Source of the DNA: Candidatus Altiarchaeota archaeon
GTDB taxonomy: Archaea > SpSt-1190
Assembly: GCA_018220935.1 (NCBI GenBank)
Contig: JAAOXU010000002.1
Location: 7,664 to 71,663, forward strand
Length of the DNA stretch: 64,000 bases
Direction: 5' to 3'
Positions within the stretch are counted from its first letter, which is position 1. Each line of letters starts with the position of its first letter. Of this stretch, positions 5,554-51,102 are shown in pieces. The notes under the pieces are model-generated. The model was not told the DNA's origin and did not search any database. It saw only the letters and a list, made by a program, of their open reading frames with translations. The translations under genes and the position numbers were made by a program.

Positions 5554-5679
5554 TAACTAGTTTATATGAGCTATGAAACGAGCTTTTTCCCGCCGAGCGG
5601 GATTTTCAAAAAAGCTCGACCAAAACATGACAGAAAAACAAGGTAAAACCGCTCTAACTAGTTTATATGAGCTATGAAA
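5554..5679. repeat. 76-bp hairpin-family insert (5579-5654) flanked by exact 25-bp direct repeats (5554-5578, 5655-5679)
   Basis: TAACTAGTTTATATGAGCTATGAAA occurs twice. The distal copy holds the stop and last 7 codons of ORF 5658-6974. The insert carries a nested palindrome: CGAGCTTTTT-CCCGCCGAGCGGG-ATTTTC-AAAAAAGCTCG (5579-5618). Confidence 0.8.
5562..5569 (-). promoter_or_regulatory. TATA-like box for cbf5 (inside direct-repeat copy 1)
   Basis: CATATAAA on the minus strand, about 20-28 nt upstream of the cbf5 start. Confidence 0.35.
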
Positions 5680-25919: not shown

Positions 25920-25930
25920 GAAAATAAAAG

Positions 25931-26085
25931 TCCCGCGGGCCGGATTTGAACCGGCAACAAGACGGTTTCTGATCGAGGGCTACTTTTCTCACCCCGCTAA
26001 GCGAGGGATTATCCCGTATTTCGGGTCCGTATGAGCATGCTCATCGGCTACAGCCGCCTGCTCTACCAGGTTGAGCTACCGCGGG
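25931..26085 (-). tRNA. tRNA-Tyr(GUA): tRNA-Tyr(GUA) with an 81-nt intron at the canonical 37/38 position
   Basis: Manual cloverleaf: CCCGCGG-UA-GCUC-AACCUGGUA-GAGC-A-GGCGG-CUGUAG[intron]A-CCGUC-UUGUU-GCCGG-UUCAAAU-CCGGC-CCGCGGG-A. Exons are 26048-26085 and 25931-25966; the intron is 25967-26047. It has the C1:G72 pair expected for archaeal tRNA-Tyr, and the anticodon loop CUGUAGA matches archaeal tRNA-Tyr. No CCA is encoded. The loop CUG can pair with the intron CAG, leaving an AA|A bulge at the 3' junction. Confidence 0.8.
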
Positions 26086-28922: not shown

Positions 28923-28947
28923 GATTTCAATTCTTACGTTACATAAC

Positions 28948-28966
28948 CCCACGTTAGTAACGTGGG
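28948..28966. terminator. Perfect 9-bp inverted repeat between convergent genes
   Basis: CCCACGTTA-G-TAACGTGGG lies between the stop at 28920-28922 (+) and the stop at 29014-29016 (-). Terminator function is an inference. Confidence 0.3.
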
Positions 28967-29013
28967 TTCAAATTTCACTAGATTCATTCAAGCTTTTTTC
29001 CGCTCCGCAAGAC

Positions 29014-42015: not shown

Positions 42016-43236
42016 GTGAGTATCTTTACAAAAAATATTATTCCAACTAAGCCACCCTTGGTAAGGGGGGATGGGATTTTTGTATATGATACTTCTGGTA
42101 AAAAATATCTTGATGGCTGTTCACAAACTCTCAATTTAAGTCTAGGGCATAATCATCCTAAAATAGTTAGTGCTACTAAAAAACAAATTGACCAGATTTA
42201 TTATGTTTCTTCTAGGTTTATGAGTCCTTCAATCTTTGAGTTGTCTCAAGCTTTAGTAAAAATAAGCCCAATTAATTTGACAAAAATTAATATTAAAGAT
42301 GTTTCGGGGAGTTTGGCAAACGAAGCTGCAATAAAATCTGCCAGAAAATACTCCGGTAAAAAAACCATTCTTTCTCTTGATTCAAGTCATATTGGTCAAT
42401 CAATTGAGATGTTACGTGCATCTGGGGATGCAAATCTTGATTATATTGGAAAAGATGGCTACAAAATGGTTAAACCCCCCTATTGTCCTGGATTCTTGTC
42501 ACATTCAGAAAAAGAAGACCTTACCAATCTTGCTTTGACTGAGGTTGAAAAAATTATTCAAGACTCTGCTGGGATAATAATTGAACCAATAATGGTTAGT
42601 TCTGGTGTTCTTGTACTTCCAAAACAATACATTAAAGGTGTTAGAAAATTAACTAAAAAACATAATTCTGCGCTTATTTTTGATGAGATTCAAACAGCTT
42701 TTGGCTGGATGGGTGAGGTTTTTGCTGCTGATTATTTTGGTGTTTCCCCTGATATCATGACGCTAAGTAAAGGACTTTCTGGTGGTTTTCCTCTTGCTGC
42801 AAGTTTATTTAGTGAAAAATATGATGTTCTAGACTATGGGGAACATGAGTTTACTTATGGTGCTCATCCTGTGTCTTGTGCCGCGGCCTTAGAAGTTCTA
42901 AAAGTTATGAAAGATGGTAAAACACTAAAACACGTTAAAAAAATGGGAGATTTATCTCAAAAATTACTTTTAGAGATTAAGGATGAATTTGATGTAGTTT
43001 ATGACGTCAGAGGTGTGGGGTTAATACGTGGTATTGAGTTTTATGACCAAAATAAACCTTCTAAAAAGTTAAGGGACAAAGTAGAAGAAAATTGCTTTAA
43101 CAATGGTCTGATTTTAAGAAATTCCTCTAGTAATCATAAGAACGTTCTCATATTCAAACCACCAATAATAATTATTGAAGAAGAAATTACTTCTGCAATG
43201 GAAATTTTAAGAACATCAATCCGAAAATCCCTTTAG
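42016..43236 (+). CDS. Class-III PLP-dependent aminotransferase
   Basis: ..FDEIQTAFGWMGEVFA..DIMTLSKGLSGGFPL.. (PLP lysine). Confidence 0.75.
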   Translation: MSIFTKNIIPTKPPLVRGDGIFVYDTSGKKYLDGCSQTLNLSLGHNHPKIVSATKKQIDQIYYVSSRFMSPSIFELSQALVKISPINLTKINIKDVSGSLANEAAIKSARKYSGKKTILSLDSSHIGQSIEMLRASGDANLDYIGKDGYKMVKPPYCPGFLSHSEKEDLTNLALTEVEKIIQDSAGIIIEPIMVSSGVLVLPKQYIKGVRKLTKKHNSALIFDEIQTAFGWMGEVFAADYFGVSPDIMTLSKGLSGGFPLAASLFSEKYDVLDYGEHEFTYGAHPVSCAAALEVLKVMKDGKTLKHVKKMGDLSQKLLLEIKDEFDVVYDVRGVGLIRGIEFYDQNKPSKKLRDKVEENCFNNGLILRNSSSNHKNVLIFKPPIIIIEEEITSAMEILRTSIRKSL

Positions 43237-43687: not shown

Positions 43688-43709
43688 CTTTCTTTACTTA
43701 TTTTCTTTA

Positions 43710-43766
43710 GTGATGACAGAATCCAATACTGACCCCACCGGGTGTGACGAATGATGGGCTGTCTGA
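43710..43766 (+). ncRNA. Candidate box C/D sRNA (2'-O-methylation guide)
   Basis: Located in a 147-nt intergenic gap. Layout: C box GUGAUGA (43710-16), 12-nt guide CAGAAUCCAAUA, D' CUGA (43729-32), 12-nt spacer, C' UGACGA (43745-50, one mismatch), 12-nt guide AUGAUGGGCUGU, D CUGA (43763-66). The 12-nt box spacing is the archaeal hallmark. The terminal stem is weak. Confidence 0.55.
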
Positions 43767-43805
43767 CCAACTTGAACCGAAACAAAATCCGAACTGATTT
43801 AATAC

Positions 43806-44183: not shown

Positions 44184-44225
44184 TCAAGCATTACAAACTT
44201 TTAGAAAAAGTTGGATTAAAACGTT

Positions 44226-44299
44226 GCGTCTGTCGTTCAGTTTGGCTAGGACTCTAGCTTCCCAAGCTAGTAACGCGGGTTCAAATCCCGCCAGGCGCA
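44226..44299 (+). tRNA. tRNA-Gly(CCC): tRNA-Gly(CCC)
   Basis: Manual cloverleaf: GCGUCUG-UC-GUUC-AGUUUGGCUA-GGAC-U-CUAGC-UUCCCAA-GCUAG-UAAC-GCGGG-UUCAAAU-CCCGC-CAGGCGC-A. It is 74 nt, with one G-U pair in the acceptor stem, no intron and no CCA. Confidence 0.85.
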
Positions 44300-44398
44300 T
44301 ACAAGCTTTTCTCACTCGCTTCGCTTGCTCCAAAACCTTGATCAAAAGGAGGTATCGGAACCTTGGTTCTGATTGGGTATCAAATCCCGCCAGGCGCA
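44300..44398 (+). repeat. 80-nt hairpin-family insert (44300-44379) followed by an exact duplicate of the tRNA-Gly 3' end (44380-44398)
   Basis: TCAAATCCCGCCAGGCGCA occurs at 44281-44299 and 44380-44398. The insert starts AAGCTTTTCTCACTC, contains GCTCCAAAAC, and has a 9-bp hairpin ATCGGAACC-TT-GGTTCTGAT. Confidence 0.8.
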
Positions 44399-44428
44399 CA
44401 TACTGTCTCTAGTTTGACGTGACAAAGG

Positions 44429-44438
44429 TTTATAATTA
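44429..44438 (+). promoter_or_regulatory. TATA-like box for the ChaC-like gene
   Basis: TTTATAATTA is centred ~26 nt upstream of ATG 44459. Confidence 0.4.
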
Positions 44439-44458
44439 GATCTTGACCTGATGAGCCT

Positions 44459-44995
44459 ATGGCAACAATATTAGGATACGGATCCTTGATGGATAAAAGT
44501 CAATTTGAGGCTTGGAAAAACCCGGTTCCTGTAACTGTCCACAATGTTAAGAGATCTTTTGCTAAAGACGCTTCAAGAGGTGCGTGGATGAATCATTCTA
44601 GTTATGTTTCTCCTATCTACACGGGTGTTCTTAGTGCTGAACTTAAATCTGGTTATGATACGTCTGCGGTGGCCTATGATATGGAAGATGCGGAAGTTGA
44701 AAAGTTAATGAATGATAGGGAGTTTGACTATGAACTCGTTGAGGTTGATTTTACGCCGTTATCTGACGAGTCTAAAATCCAAAAAGGGTTGATTATGATC
44801 CCAAATGTTCCAGATAAAATGAAAGACAATACACTTCCAATTTACAAATATATGGACGTTTGTTTGTCTGGTGCGGCTTCATGGGGTGAAGATTTTTTGA
44901 ATTTGTTTTTAGATACTACATACCTTGCTAACGGCAAAATAACGCTTAGAGATTATCTTGCGGTTGATTCGACCTACCACACTTCAAGTTACTAG
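44459..44995 (+). CDS. Gamma-glutamylcyclotransferase-like protein (ChaC/AIG2 fold), tentative
   Basis: The N-terminal ILGYGSLMDKSQFE, ..V.RSFA..SRG.., ..REFDYELVEV.. pattern resembles ChaC-like proteins. Confidence 0.4.
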   Translation: MATILGYGSLMDKSQFEAWKNPVPVTVHNVKRSFAKDASRGAWMNHSSYVSPIYTGVLSAELKSGYDTSAVAYDMEDAEVEKLMNDREFDYELVEVDFTPLSDESKIQKGLIMIPNVPDKMKDNTLPIYKYMDVCLSGAASWGEDFLNLFLDTTYLANGKITLRDYLAVDSTYHTSSY

Positions 44996-45010
44996 GTCTA
45001 AATTCAAGAA

Positions 45011-45029
45011 AGCTTCCCAAGCTAGTAAC
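45011..45029 (+). repeat. Exact 19-nt copy of the tRNA-Gly anticodon arm/variable region
   Basis: AGCTTCCCAAGCTAGTAAC is identical to 44256-44274. It is not part of any cloverleaf here. Confidence 0.8.
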
Positions 45030-45068
45030 TAAAGGAAAAATCTCACCAGACTAACTTAAATATCTAAA

Positions 45069-48220: not shown

Positions 48221-49209
48221 CCTCCGACCCTCCTAAGTGTTAATGCGAGAAAAATTGCCCCTGCACCAATTAGATAATATCCTATGTCTTTTGGCATATA
48301 ATCCCACATAGTTTTTGTTATCATTTCTTTTGCTGCTTTACCAAATTCACTTTTTACTTCGTCTCCAATATTACTCTCTTTTATGGCGTCTCCCATTTTG
48401 TCTAATGTTCCGTCTCTTGCAAGCTCTCTCATGTAATCTCTTGCAATCTTGTAAATGGCATCATAATCTAATTCCTTTAGTAATTTGTATAAAAGCTCCA
48501 TTTCTTCCTTCCCAATATTATTTTTTATTTGATCAAGTGCTTTTCTTGTTATATCTTCATTAATCTCACCTAGTTTACTTTGGATTTCATCTAGGGTTTC
48601 TTGATCTAGATACTTACTCAAATCCTCATCATTGATTTTGTTTAATGCATCTAGTATTTCGTCATAGTGTGAATAACCAACTTCCCCCATATCAATTGCA
48701 TCATACATATTCAAAAATTCATTTGCTAGATTTGGATCTAGATTGTCAAGAAAGTCAATAGCTTCACTAGCACTATCGAGTCCAAGACCATCTTCTAAAT
48801 AATTTTCTAGACTGCCATATCTTTGTGAATAATATGCATATTTTAGAAAGTCTTCGTCACGTAAAATTTCGTCATCAAAATTCATACCACCTTCAATTCT
48901 TAATAACGCCATTTCTTTAGCTGCTAATTCCATTTGTGAACTACCTATGACAAGACCATCATTTCCGGGTATAAGTGTTAAATTACCATAGGTTATACTA
49001 TCCTTAAAAGTTCCATTTTCAATGAATCCATATGGGATACCTAATTCATCAAAAAGTACAAATTTTTCTTGTAATTCTAATTCACCTAAAGCTGAAGGCA
49101 AAAAGGAAGTTGCAATAATGGTTTTGTTATCATCTGGGAATATTACTTCACTAAACCCACTAGATAGAACGGAACTGATCATAAAGATAAGTAACAGTTT
49201 TCTGCTCAT
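48217..49209 (-). CDS. Secreted acidic protein with C-terminal TM anchor, unknown function
   Basis: Signal peptide MSRKLLLIFMISSVLSSGFS and C-terminal YYLIGAGAIFLALTL. It overlaps the upstream ORF by ~50 nt. Confidence 0.5.
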   Translation of the reverse strand: MSRKLLLIFMISSVLSSGFSEVIFPDDNKTIIATSFLPSALGELELQEKFVLFDELGIPYGFIENGTFKDSITYGNLTLIPGNDGLVIGSSQMELAAKEMALLRIEGGMNFDDEILRDEDFLKYAYYSQRYGSLENYLEDGLGLDSASEAIDFLDNLDPNLANEFLNMYDAIDMGEVGYSHYDEILDALNKINDEDLSKYLDQETLDEIQSKLGEINEDITRKALDQIKNNIGKEEMELLYKLLKELDYDAIYKIARDYMRELARDGTLDKMGDAIKESNIGDEVKSEFGKAAKEMITKTMWDYMPKDIGYYLIGAGAIFLALTLRRVGG

Positions 49210-49597
49210 CGCTTATTCCACCCCCATATTTTTTGCTTTCAAATCCTTTGAAAATATTTGCTATAATTTTTTTCTCTTCCCCTTCTAAACTTTCAAGTAT
49301 TTTTTCTCTTGCTCTAAACCCTTCCCCATCATCATGAGAAATTTTACCTTTGTGTAAGTAAGTATTAATTACATATTCATACAAAGTTTCAAGACTGCTT
49401 GTGTCTCCTTCTTTTAATTTAACAAACCATTTTCTTATCCACAAAAATAATTTCCGGTCCGGTCTTTTTGCACCGAAAAATTTAGAGAAAACGTATGAGA
49501 CAATTAAAAGAATTAAAAAAACGTCAACTACTAAAACTAACATTAGTAATGGGCTTTCAATCATAACTTTTAGAATATCTCCAATCATCAAATCCAC
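49160..49597 (-). CDS. Small N-terminally anchored protein (DUF4129-like, tentative)
   Basis: N-terminal TM. The C-terminal ..FRAREKILESLEGEEKKIIANIFKGFESKKYGG.. is reminiscent of DUF4129 proteins found in MoxR/DUF58 operons. Confidence 0.35.
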   Translation of the reverse strand: MDLMIGDILKVMIESPLLMLVLVVDVFLILLIVSYVFSKFFGAKRPDRKLFLWIRKWFVKLKEGDTSSLETLYEYVINTYLHKGKISHDDGEGFRAREKILESLEGEEKKIIANIFKGFESKKYGGGISDEQKTVTYLYDQFRSI

Positions 49598-51102
49598 TTC
49601 CTAATTAACATGAACCCTATAGCTAGAATGGCCGTCAAAGTAGTTAAGATTATCGCAGCTTGTATTTCTTCGGTTTCTGAGAGTAGTGTGATGTTTATTT
49701 CACCTTTTTCTTTAACATCTTTGTATCCTTCTGCAACACATTTAACCGAAAAACTGAAGTCCCCTGATTCATTTAGTTGAACTTCAAAAGTTCCTTCACC
49801 AAATAGGTAATTATTATCTGTTACTTTAGTTATCCTAACTCCACTAGGCGACAAAAGAGTTCCTTCCAAATCACAATCAGCTTGAATTTTTGGGAAAACT
49901 GTAGCCTCAATACTAACAAATTCCCCTTCTTTAGCGTCTGGTGGGTGTTTTAGATTTAAAGTAATCTCAATAGGCTTTATATCAAAAAGTGCTACACCTT
50001 CAAATGTTTTGTATCCATACTTTGAGCAAGATACTGAAACGCTAGTTTCAAGTGGTCCTGCAGGTGCCTTAAAATACGCTTCTTTGGAGCTTTTTACGGT
50101 CTTAGTAACGTCTTCTAGTATTAATTCACAATCCCCATTAGTTATTGGATTCCAATTTTTATCATAGTAATTTGGCTTTATTGAAAATTGTTGAAATGAA
50201 AAAGGTCTCTCAGTTGAGAACTGTAATTCAACTCTTGTCTCAACTTCACTTGATATGAATTTTATATTTTCTGAGTTAGAATCGTAGCCTGGTGCAGAAC
50301 AATATACTTGAATATCCTTTTCTCCAAGAAAATCAATTTCTGCTGTTAATGTGTAATAGTATGATGATGTTTTTACCATATTACCTTGATCTGAATAACA
50401 TGTAGTAGTGTATGGTGAGATTGCAATTGAGATACTTCTGTAATCTCCAAAATTACCTTCAACTGAGGTTTCTGTTGGGGTAATAGTCACTGGTACTTTG
50501 TTTATGTCAAAATTTTGAGATCTACTTTGACTGGTGTGGTATGAGTCACTACAGTCAATATCAACATCATGATATCCACTATTAACTACAGTATAATATC
50601 CTCTAAATTCCCTTGACCCTGAATCATAAAATAAATTTAGACTCTCATATGCCCCTTCGTCAGGATCAATATAAGCAGTACAATATCCTGATGTTATGGG
50701 ATCATCACTCATGTCTTTGTAATCTGCACTAATTGTCAAAGTATCTCCAATTCGAGAAACTGAACTTAAACTCATAAAAATTTTGGAATTAGGATTTACT
50801 TCAAACACTTTTTGATCCTCGTCCCCATAACAATTAACTGTTGCTATGCGTGTTCCTGTTGAGCTAAATGATGTCGTTGATTCTGCTCTGTCTGTGTAAA
50901 TATCCATGATGTAGAATTGCTCAATATTTTCACCTTTTTTTATTTCAAGACTACAAGTTGGACTAGTCACGGGTGTTAGTCCATCCAGAACTACGGCACT
51001 AATTATCCAATCCTCATATACATCAACACTAGCACTCGCACTTATGTCCACAGTATATGCAAAAACTGGTAAGAATAATAGTGCAAATACGAGTGCTTTC
51101 AC
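49588..51102 (-). CDS. Secreted beta-rich surface protein with C-terminal TM anchor
   Basis: Signal peptide MKALVFALLFLPVFA, repeated Cys-containing Ig-like segments (..VNCYGD.., ..IDCSDS.., ..VYCSAPGY.., ..VSCSKYGY.., ..VKCVAEGY..), and a C-terminal TM. Confidence 0.55.
   Translation of the reverse strand: MKALVFALLFLPVFAYTVDISASASVDVYEDWIISAVVLDGLTPVTSPTCSLEIKKGENIEQFYIMDIYTDRAESTTSFSSTGTRIATVNCYGDEDQKVFEVNPNSKIFMSLSSVSRIGDTLTISADYKDMSDDPITSGYCTAYIDPDEGAYESLNLFYDSGSREFRGYYTVVNSGYHDVDIDCSDSYHTSQSRSQNFDINKVPVTITPTETSVEGNFGDYRSISIAISPYTTTCYSDQGNMVKTSSYYYTLTAEIDFLGEKDIQVYCSAPGYDSNSENIKFISSEVETRVELQFSTERPFSFQQFSIKPNYYDKNWNPITNGDCELILEDVTKTVKSSKEAYFKAPAGPLETSVSVSCSKYGYKTFEGVALFDIKPIEITLNLKHPPDAKEGEFVSIEATVFPKIQADCDLEGTLLSPSGVRITKVTDNNYLFGEGTFEVQLNESGDFSFSVKCVAEGYKDVKEKGEINITLLSETEEIQAAIILTTLTAILAIGFMLIRKWI

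Follow-up and report, generated by a model that had tools for sequence, protein, structure and literature searches.

Putative insertion scars at a tRNA-Gly(CCC) gene and a recurrent hairpin module beside duplicated gene ends in DPANN archaea

The DNA investigated here is a 64,000-nt window of a Candidatus Altiarchaeota genome (SpSt-1190, contig JAAOXU010000002.1), in which an intact tRNA-Gly(CCC) gene is followed by two exact 19-nt fragments of itself, one behind a short insert ending in a hairpin and the other behind a single gene for a ChaC-like protein. We consider, with a probability of about 0.6, that these fragments are the scars of two separate insertions at a hot-spot tRNA gene, rather than pieces of a split tRNA. 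Incomplete tRNA copies next to an intact gene are a well-known mark of integrated elements, and the finding as first written is in this respect ordinary. The unusual part is that the layout recurs, that one near-invariant hairpin is present in distant DPANN lineages, and that no recombinase was found in the genome under study. This genome, designated G000, comprises 850,445 bases in 37 contigs (88% complete, 35.7% G+C), and the window corresponds to positions 7664-71663 of its contig C35.

The tRNA-Gly(CCC) gene occupies positions 44226-44299 of the + strand (Rfam, 60.6 bits, E 6.8e-12; 44225-44300 according to ARAGORN) and contains the left copies of both 19-mers. Its last 19 nt, TCAAATCCCGCCAGGCGCA (44281-44299, tRNA positions 55-73), have an exact second copy at 44380-44398, with 80 nt between the two. 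The other 19-mer, AGCTTCCCAAGCTAGTAAC (44256-44274, tRNA positions 27-45), is repeated exactly at 45011-45029, starting 15 nt past the stop codon of a 178-residue open reading frame (ORF; 44459-44995). Over the whole assembly, either 19-mer occurs exactly twice at zero mismatches, and a control with reversed patterns gave no match. When up to two mismatches were allowed, the first 19-mer also matched two tRNA-Arg 3' ends, and the second gave no further match in the whole assembly. Because each 19-mer has only these two exact copies in the assembly, chance and dispersed repeats were both rejected as the source of the 19-mers. This genome-wide search confirms the two recurrences announced in the original prediction and excludes the common dispersed repeat that it had named as a possible refutation.

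The 80-nt insert between the inner copies, previously recognized as a member of a hairpin family, is confirmed and resolves into a palindromic flank motif (44303-44348) and a hairpin module, hereafter H (44348-44374, + strand). At this locus, H is made of GGAGGT, a stem formed by ATCGGAACC and GGTTCTGAT (9 bp with one G-T pair) and a final T; its generic form of 27-28 nt is GGAGGTATCGGAACC-loop-GGTTCTGATT. It scores 48.6 bits under R1, a covariance model of H built on 35 sequences with 9 base pairs. The stem extensions covary, and the G-U pair of the stem varies to G-C and A-U. The right inner copy (44375-44398, + strand) opens with GGGTA, corresponding to tRNA positions 51-54 plus one inserted A, and then runs exactly from position 55 to 73. 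In Rfam, the sole match above the gathering score between positions 43000 and 46500 was tRNA, and 15 H-bearing loci (E up to 0.01) returned tRNA and 5S rRNA matches only. The sequence joining the right inner copy to its flank was sought in metagenomes and gave 0 matches. In two public sequencing runs that contain the genome, the contigs break off at the repeats and display no joint. No paper printing or describing H was found in a literature search whose coverage excluded subscription journals and supplements. The hairpin module and the gene-end duplications look undescribed.

The outer copy (45011-45054, + strand) extends beyond its exact part, since tRNA positions 27-45 (45011-45029) are followed by a degenerate, in-register continuation down to position 73 (45030-45054). 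This continuation matches the tRNA at 13 of 25 positions, a score that 236 of 200,000 random genomic 25-mers reach (p ~0.001), and its mismatches are mostly changes from G/C to A/T. At position 69, the relic displays an A that would pair with T4, where the working tRNA has T4-G69, suggesting that the relic is older and that the insert brought in the 3' part now in use. The outer copy is accordingly read as the former 3' half of the tRNA, moved downstream, in the manner of an attR attachment site. The sole ORF between the outer repeats (44459-44995, + strand) encodes a protein predicted to be a divergent ChaC/AIG2-like member of the gamma-glutamyl-cyclotransferase fold. Its match to the Pfam ChaC family (PF04752, residues 4-112) is borderline (22.1 bits for a cut-off of 21), and with this nuance the earlier claim of a lone ChaC-like gene bracketed by two tRNA-Gly fragments holds. 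A word-based search recovered only the protein itself, and an exhaustive one gave 105 distant relatives (best non-self identity of 38%); among 12 of these that were scanned, 4 pass Pfam ChaC and 2 show sub-threshold AIG2/GGACT matches.

The state of the locus in related genomes, which are drafts of 72-94% completeness, points in the same direction. In G001 (same genus as G000) and G004 (same family), no fragment is found within the ~900 nt compared downstream of tRNA-Gly(CCC), where other genes are present. The ChaC-like gene was not found in any of the 20 relatives searched, and hence in 1 of 21 genomes, its own. Similarly, G001 retains the tRNA-Val/tRNA-Cys pair of G000 with neither H nor fragment after tRNA-Cys. 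H appears from these comparisons to have been gained, not inherited, at both the tRNA-Cys and the tRNA-Gly(CCC) loci. The att-like footprints of an insertion at a tRNA gene envisaged in the original prediction are thereby supported. Its remark that the window lacks an integrase is also borne out and can be extended, as no PF00589 match exists in the whole 88%-complete genome. The genome looks archaeal, with its intron-bearing tRNAs and a C/D-box sRNA-like match next to the locus, and the MoxR ATPase of the window has its closest relatives in metagenome-assembled genomes (MAGs) labelled Nanobdellati/DPANN (73% and 69% identity); the contigs of the nearest MoxR-bearing relatives stop short of the tRNA-Gly(CCC) locus. 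Separately, tRNA-Gly(CCC) in G005, a member of another genus, is accompanied by two additional copies of its last 19 nt, both exact (L016; G005:C19, 1501-1900). The order there is tRNA-Gly(CCC), ~110 nt ending in a different hairpin (GGGGTTTAGAAAGGGGCGAAGCCCCTTCT), the 19-nt copy, a scaffold gap and the third copy.

Two successive events would account for this organization. In the first one (outer), a ~0.7-kb segment carrying its own tRNA 3' part and the ChaC-like gene would have joined the tRNA gene at the anticodon-stem region; the working tRNA would since then use the incoming 3' part, and the original 3' half would have been moved to 45011-45054, where it is decaying. In the second one (inner), a small module ending in H would have been placed after the tRNA, and the final 19-23 nt of the tRNA would have been repeated right behind the hairpin. 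We infer both this order of events and the mobility of H. The resulting arrangement, [X]-spacer-H-[X], has come about many times, in this family as well as elsewhere among DPANN archaea, X being the terminal 15-29 nt of whichever gene adjoins the module. As X copies the gene end beside the module, the gene would stay whole and the extra copy would be a dispensable relic. The inner scar may result from target duplication upon insertion, which is favoured because one hairpin adjoins more than ten different X sequences. Alternatively, the element may itself carry the gene end in an attP-like fashion, which is favoured because X stops at the gene end and because the copies of protein-gene ends differ by synonymous changes. 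Neither of these models explains everything.

Integrated elements have been described to leave partial tRNA genes behind (PMC9897764; PMC3293823). In Pyrococcus yayanosii, the element PYG1 is flanked by 44-bp direct repeats of tRNA-Gln (PMC9897764). The scars described here resemble such archaeal attL/attR scars by a repeat that extends from an internal point to the 3' end of the gene, by the foreign cargo in between and by a gene that is kept functional. Indeed, the inner repeat covers tRNA positions 55-73 exactly and the outer one remains in register up to position 73, the site is empty in draft relatives, and the cargo is lineage-restricted. By contrast, the inserts found here measure 60-860 nt instead of the 9-23 kb of such elements (PMC9897764), and no recombinase lies inside the element (0 matches to PF00589 and PF00239 in the whole assembly). 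Unlike attL/attR elements, a single hairpin is also found beside many gene ends, the ends of protein genes are duplicated as well, and no integrase match was obtained at the locus or in the genome. Another parallel is Caldiarchaeum subterraneum, where a 1.8-kb recombinase-encoding element disrupts a tRNA gene, a process linked to tRNA intron gain (PMC3293823). There, as proposed here, fragments of a tRNA gene are scattered by integration and recombination of an element; the difference is that no recombinase gene was seen here and that the shared unit is a hairpin of 27-28 nt.

The inner scar is one case of a layout composed of a gene 3' end (X), a spacer, H and a copy of X. Four copies of H are present in G000. 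Besides the tRNA-Gly copy, tRNA-Cys (C35:1201-1272) has the flank motif and then H downstream of it, after which its last 20 nt are repeated exactly. For tRNA-Val(GAC) (C34:95-171), H and an 18-nt copy are located ~860 nt downstream, separated from the gene by a ~250-residue ORF whose stop codon falls inside the H loop. After the fourth copy (C2), an ATG comes next. With the model R1, 17 H matches were obtained in 6 of the 10 genomes of the family, and most of the 11 matches inspected outside G000 display [X]-spacer-H-[X]. In these matches, X corresponds to the end of tRNA-Pro (24 nt), tRNA-Ser (20 nt), tRNA-Met (16 nt) or an opposite-strand tRNA-Arg(CCU) (19 nt), to a thermosome-like C-terminus including the stop codon (25 nt, G002:C4; TGA in one copy and TAA in the other), or to non-genic sequence in two matches (21 and 15 nt), and two more copies are decayed. 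Variants of the theme are found in G001, where H lies between two of three copies of one tRNA 3' end, and in G009, where 270 nt containing a small ORF separate tRNA-Gln from H, behind which the copy of the tRNA end is decayed.

In all nine exact tRNA cases, the gene-end edge of X departs from the tRNA 3' end by no more than -1 to +2 nt, and its other edge lies in the T-stem or T-loop. Older right-hand copies are decayed (tRNA-Gln in G009, tRNA-Pro in G002, tRNA-Val in G000 and a second tRNA-Pro fragment on C15). A nearby exact 3'-end copy of at least 14 nt accompanies 6 of the 46 G000 tRNAs, namely Gly, Cys, Val(GAC), Arg(UCG), Ala(GGC) and Glu(CUC), each of them with a hairpin immediately before the right-hand copy. 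At the genome level, 56 local exact repeats (at least 15 nt, within 1.5 kb) were recorded, 6 of which involve tRNA 3' parts, to be compared with the ~0.4% of G000 that tRNA genes represent. Further fragments of tRNA-Pro and tRNA-Thr exist elsewhere in G000. The layout duplicates protein-gene ends too and is therefore not tRNA-specific. In non-tRNA DNA of G000, a hairpin unrelated to H, GGGGTTTAGAAAGGG..., is found in the same layout, with a repeat of 21 nt at C36:22523/22594 and one of 16 nt at C13:29579/29641; a tandem unit is present on C11. We also considered an RNA-mediated origin of the copies from mature tRNA, which is unlikely because no copy has a CCA and some repeats enter the gene flank, as at tRNA-Arg(TCG) (65 nt) and at G001:C10. 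As a distinct arrangement, three fragments of tRNA-Thr(GGU) surround a cupin-like ORF and another ORF on C17 of G000 (48560-49800, - strand). Two are 3'-end pieces and the third, of 23 nt, spans the anticodon loop through the T-stem. C21 holds the intact gene.

Beyond this family, H was retrieved from public genomes by an exact-pattern scan with one genome per species; a looser pattern applied to genome contigs gave mostly chance bacterial matches and was filtered by stem pairing. The census amounts to 77 loci holding 80 copies, nearly all in MAGs of Woese-, Iain-, Aenigmat-, Micr-, Parv-, Nano- and Altiarchaeota or Diapherotrites, the exceptions being two Bathyarchaeia loci and one bacterial MAG. 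An Iainarchaeum MAG is rich in H, with ~10 copies. For 10 of 75 copies, the 20 nt that follow H have a second occurrence (at least 17 of 20) no more than 250 nt upstream, whereas control 20-mers located 80 and 160 nt farther along gave 0 of 74 and 0 of 73, respectively. Among the duplicated ends is the C-terminus of a histone-like gene (L149), whose copies share 29 exact nt and then diverge, one reading AGT TTG TAG and the other AGC TTA TAA. CRISPR arrays were rejected as an origin for the 27-29-nt repeats around H at four loci (L149, L151, L154 and L158) because each repeat occurs only twice in its locus. H also abuts genes or lies within them. In 11 of the 77 loci, it lies within an intron-bearing tRNA gene of the opposite strand (ARAGORN), whose intron begins with (A)AUCAGAACC...GGUUCCGAUACCUCC, the reverse complement of H. 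By eye, another four were located within T-loops (L179, L205, L213 and L218). A same-strand tRNA begins 0-3 nt past H in 5 of the 77 loci, an opposite-strand tRNA 3' end is found at this distance in 4 loci, and an ATG directly follows H in 9 of the 80 copies for ~1.25 expected. As a side observation, seven loci from Clostridia/Bacillota MAGs (L062, L063, L083, L098, L102, L106 and L132) contain an intergenic element, GGAGGTATCGG-AGGGCC...GGCCCT-CTGATT, which shares with H its flanks and basal stem, including the G-T pair, and differs in its distal stem; 6 of these loci (all but L063) were scanned against Rfam and gave no match.

It is possible, though on balance doubtful, that H marks an undescribed way for DPANN archaea to move or rewire DNA, landing precisely at gene boundaries and copying the last 15-29 nt of its neighbour behind itself. 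Such boundaries would include start codons, T-loops, the intron site of the anticodon loop and both extremities (5' and 3') of tRNA genes. If true, H would represent either a new type of insertion, from which tRNA introns would also originate, or a scaffold-plus-guide RNA with a site-programmed tail. A mobile H would provide a concrete sequence for testing how archaeal tRNA introns and fragments arise, and would show how genomes below 1 Mb acquire single genes such as the ChaC-like cargo. On a more practical level, the relics may be mis-called as tRNA genes or break assemblies.

Several observations weigh against the two-insertion reading. Seven Pfam families (PF00589, PF00239, PF07282, PF01867, PF00078, PF01548 and PF01797), which cover tyrosine and serine recombinases, IS110, IS200, TnpB, Cas1 and reverse transcriptase but not the DDE families, which were not searched, gave no match in the 88%-complete genome, and the viral contigs scanned for H gave 0 matches. 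In the public set, 65 of 75 H copies lack a flanking duplication, so that duplication is not obligatory. The repeat length varies from 15 to 29 nt and reaches 65 nt in the tRNA-Arg(TCG) case devoid of H, unlike the fixed stagger of a transposase. The synonymous changes at duplicated protein-gene ends (L149 and G002:C4) agree better with an element-borne gene end than with a simple target duplication. With 0 mismatches over 19 positions and 12 over the next 25, the outer relic has decayed unevenly for a neutral process. Finally, there is the 19-nt copy of G005. At one position, the tRNA-Gly(CCC) genes of G000 and G005 differ, and the right-hand copy of each lineage agrees there with its own tRNA; therefore, either events recur at tRNA-Gly(CCC) or the copies are kept alike, and the latter may hint at a function.

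Such a function is at the core of an alternative that we regard as unlikely, in which H+X is a working small RNA or 5' leader whose X tail is programmable, in the manner of a scaffold with its guide, and whose copies remain alike through use. The agreement of the G000 and G005 copies with their own tRNA-Gly(CCC) would be explained in this way, as would the promoter-like palindrome right before H, the Shine-Dalgarno-like GGAGGU and stable hairpin with which H opens, and the G-U to G-C and A-U variation, which fits an RNA helix on the H strand. In addition, the ...GAYCAAAAG motif that precedes H ends 3-10 nt before five tRNA 5' ends, and the right edge of H meets functional boundaries far above chance (an ATG in 9 of 80 copies versus ~1.25; a tRNA start in 5 of 77 loci). 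On the other hand, the decay of the Gln, Val and two Pro copies listed above is hard to reconcile with use, the guide-using nuclease families PF07282 and PF01867 were not found in the genome, and X is sense-oriented and therefore cannot pair with the RNA that it copies. About equally improbable in our eyes is a scenario devoid of any mobile element, in which palindromes stall replication or get cut, template-switch repair copies a nearby stretch, and the hairpins are ordinary regulatory sequences. It would accommodate the variable repeat lengths, the junction microhomology of 1-2 nt (final T of H), the lack of a transposase or recombinase among the families searched, and the same layout around two hairpins unrelated to H in G000 (GGGGTTTAGAAAGGG... 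and the flank-motif palindrome). The 3' arm of H, GGTTCTGAT, moreover resembles a T-arm (GGTTCRAAT) and could guide switching at T-loops. What repair leaves unexplained is the near-identity of H across Woese-, Iain-, Aenigm-, Micr-, Parv- and Nanoarchaeota MAGs, its presence at tRNA-Cys in G000 yet not in G001, the synonymous differences at duplicated protein-gene ends and the 0.7-kb foreign cargo of the outer repeat.

The original prediction had also raised a history of tRNA fragmentation, in which the second 3' piece would be an alternative exon attached by the archaeal splicing endonuclease or the fragments would be halves of a split, permuted or intron-containing tRNA-Gly. We judge this highly improbable. 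It draws on the 11 of 77 loci in other DPANN archaea where the reverse complement of H starts canonical tRNA introns, on its occurrence in T-loops, and on a minimum-free-energy fold of 44226-44420 (z = -2.69) in which the second copy is base-paired to the tRNA's 5' acceptor strand. That predicted fold indicates only that the second copy could compete with the true 3' end, and H has here the orientation opposite to that of the intron cases. The gene is complete and high-scoring without splicing (60.6 bits), and Gly(CCC), Gly(UCC) on C32 and Gly(GCC) on C36 are all intact; split-tRNA readings therefore fail. The separate 5' half-tRNA that a split gene would call for has no trace in the genome, each 19-mer being confined to its known places. 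In the same vein, no bulge-helix-bulge (4-bp helix, 3-nt bulges) was seen by eye at 44279/44380 or 45011, where the fold shows plain hairpins. The two-insertion reading is the one we retain.

Miniature inverted-repeat elements are short, non-coding, dispersed and palindromic, and are flanked by target repeats. H is like them short, non-coding, multi-copy, palindromic and flanked by direct repeats. It departs from them by repeats that are long and variable (15-29, up to 65 nt) and flank ~1 in 7 copies only, and by its ends, one being sharp (CTGATT|X) and the other ragged. No duplication of fixed length is observed, as would be expected of a transposon, and no matching transposase was found among the families searched, DDE ones not being included. 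Another likeness concerns the transposed bulge-helix-bulge tRNA introns of Thermoproteales, reportedly described by Fujishima et al. in 2010 as one short sequence at differing positions of tRNA genes. As with these introns, H is a conserved short sequence found at different positions of different tRNA genes, but it also occurs outside tRNAs (start codons, leaders, gene ends), and at the present locus it is outside the tRNA and in the opposite orientation. A third comparison is offered by homing guide RNAs: type V-K CRISPR-associated transposons use a delocalized CRISPR RNA matching a tRNA gene, and IS200/IS605 omega RNAs carry their guides at the right end. H+X is reminiscent of these by a hairpin scaffold followed by ~17-20 nt identical to an adjacent conserved gene end. 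Unlike them, it comes with no transposon body, and no Cas12k/TnpB-type protein or Cas1 was found in the genome. Besides, the reverse complement of H (AAUCAGAACC-loop-GGUUCCGAUACCUCC) presumably resembles the last hairpin of the general 16S rRNA sequence with its anti-Shine-Dalgarno tail; on this assumption, H would read as an extended Shine-Dalgarno sequence. The 16S contig of this genome stops before the 3' end.

The flank motif that makes up the rest of the inner insert deserves a separate description. The spacer (44300-44347, + strand) belongs to the family AAGCTTTT...AAAACCTTGATCAAAAG, also written AAGCTTTT...AAAAGCTTGAYCAAAAG in the insert, and the same motif is found after many G000 tRNA genes; its genome-wide form is AAGCTTTT-(variable)-AAAAGCTTGAYCAAAA. 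A palindrome of this type, AAACTTTTAGAAAAAGTTGGATTAAAAC (44195-44222, + strand), also stops 3 nt before tRNA-Gly(CCC). Among the 46 tRNAs detected in G000 by ARAGORN with intron search, some of them intron-bearing, 5 of the 46 have AAAAGCTTGAYCAAAA (up to 3 mismatches) ending 3-10 nt ahead of their 5' end, tRNA-Gly(CCC) included, and the flank motif at the same tolerance starts 13-56 nt past 14 of the 46 3' ends. The motif may accordingly act as a promoter and/or a terminator. It immediately precedes H, as ...GAYCAAAAG, at the Gly and Cys loci and at G002:C13. Two duplications around the motif were recorded besides. An exact 25-nt direct repeat at positions 5554-5578 and 5655-5679 of the window (+ strand; C35:13217/13318) brackets the flank-motif palindrome in non-tRNA DNA, without H. 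Upstream of tRNA-Gly(CCC) in G001 (C48, reverse strand), an 18-nt duplicate (3 nt of flank plus tRNA positions 1-15) surrounds the palindrome, giving a 5'-end mirror of the 3'-end layout.

Other features complete the picture of the region. Upstream of the cargo gene, an AT-rich box, GGTTTATAATTAG (44427-44439, + strand), lies ~26 nt before the ATG and could be a TATA-like promoter element, judging from its sequence. Outside the scars, a C/D-box sRNA-like element (43706-43768, + strand) matches Rfam sR2 with 21.2 bits, below the gathering score of 42, and displays C, D', C' and D boxes. It is kept beside tRNA-Gly(CCC) in G001, G004 and G005 at a distance that ranges from ~60 to ~1400 nt across genomes; therefore, the upstream side of tRNA-Gly(CCC) is variable too. 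Elsewhere in the window, a tRNA-Tyr(GTA) with an 81-nt intron (25930-26085, - strand) was detected solely by the ARAGORN intron search. Finally, a decayed tRNA 3' relic at ~28945-28995 (+ strand), to which no intact tRNA is adjacent, comprises a variable region, a T-arm-like GTGGGTTCAAAT and an acceptor-like strand, and is followed by the AAGCTTTT flank motif.

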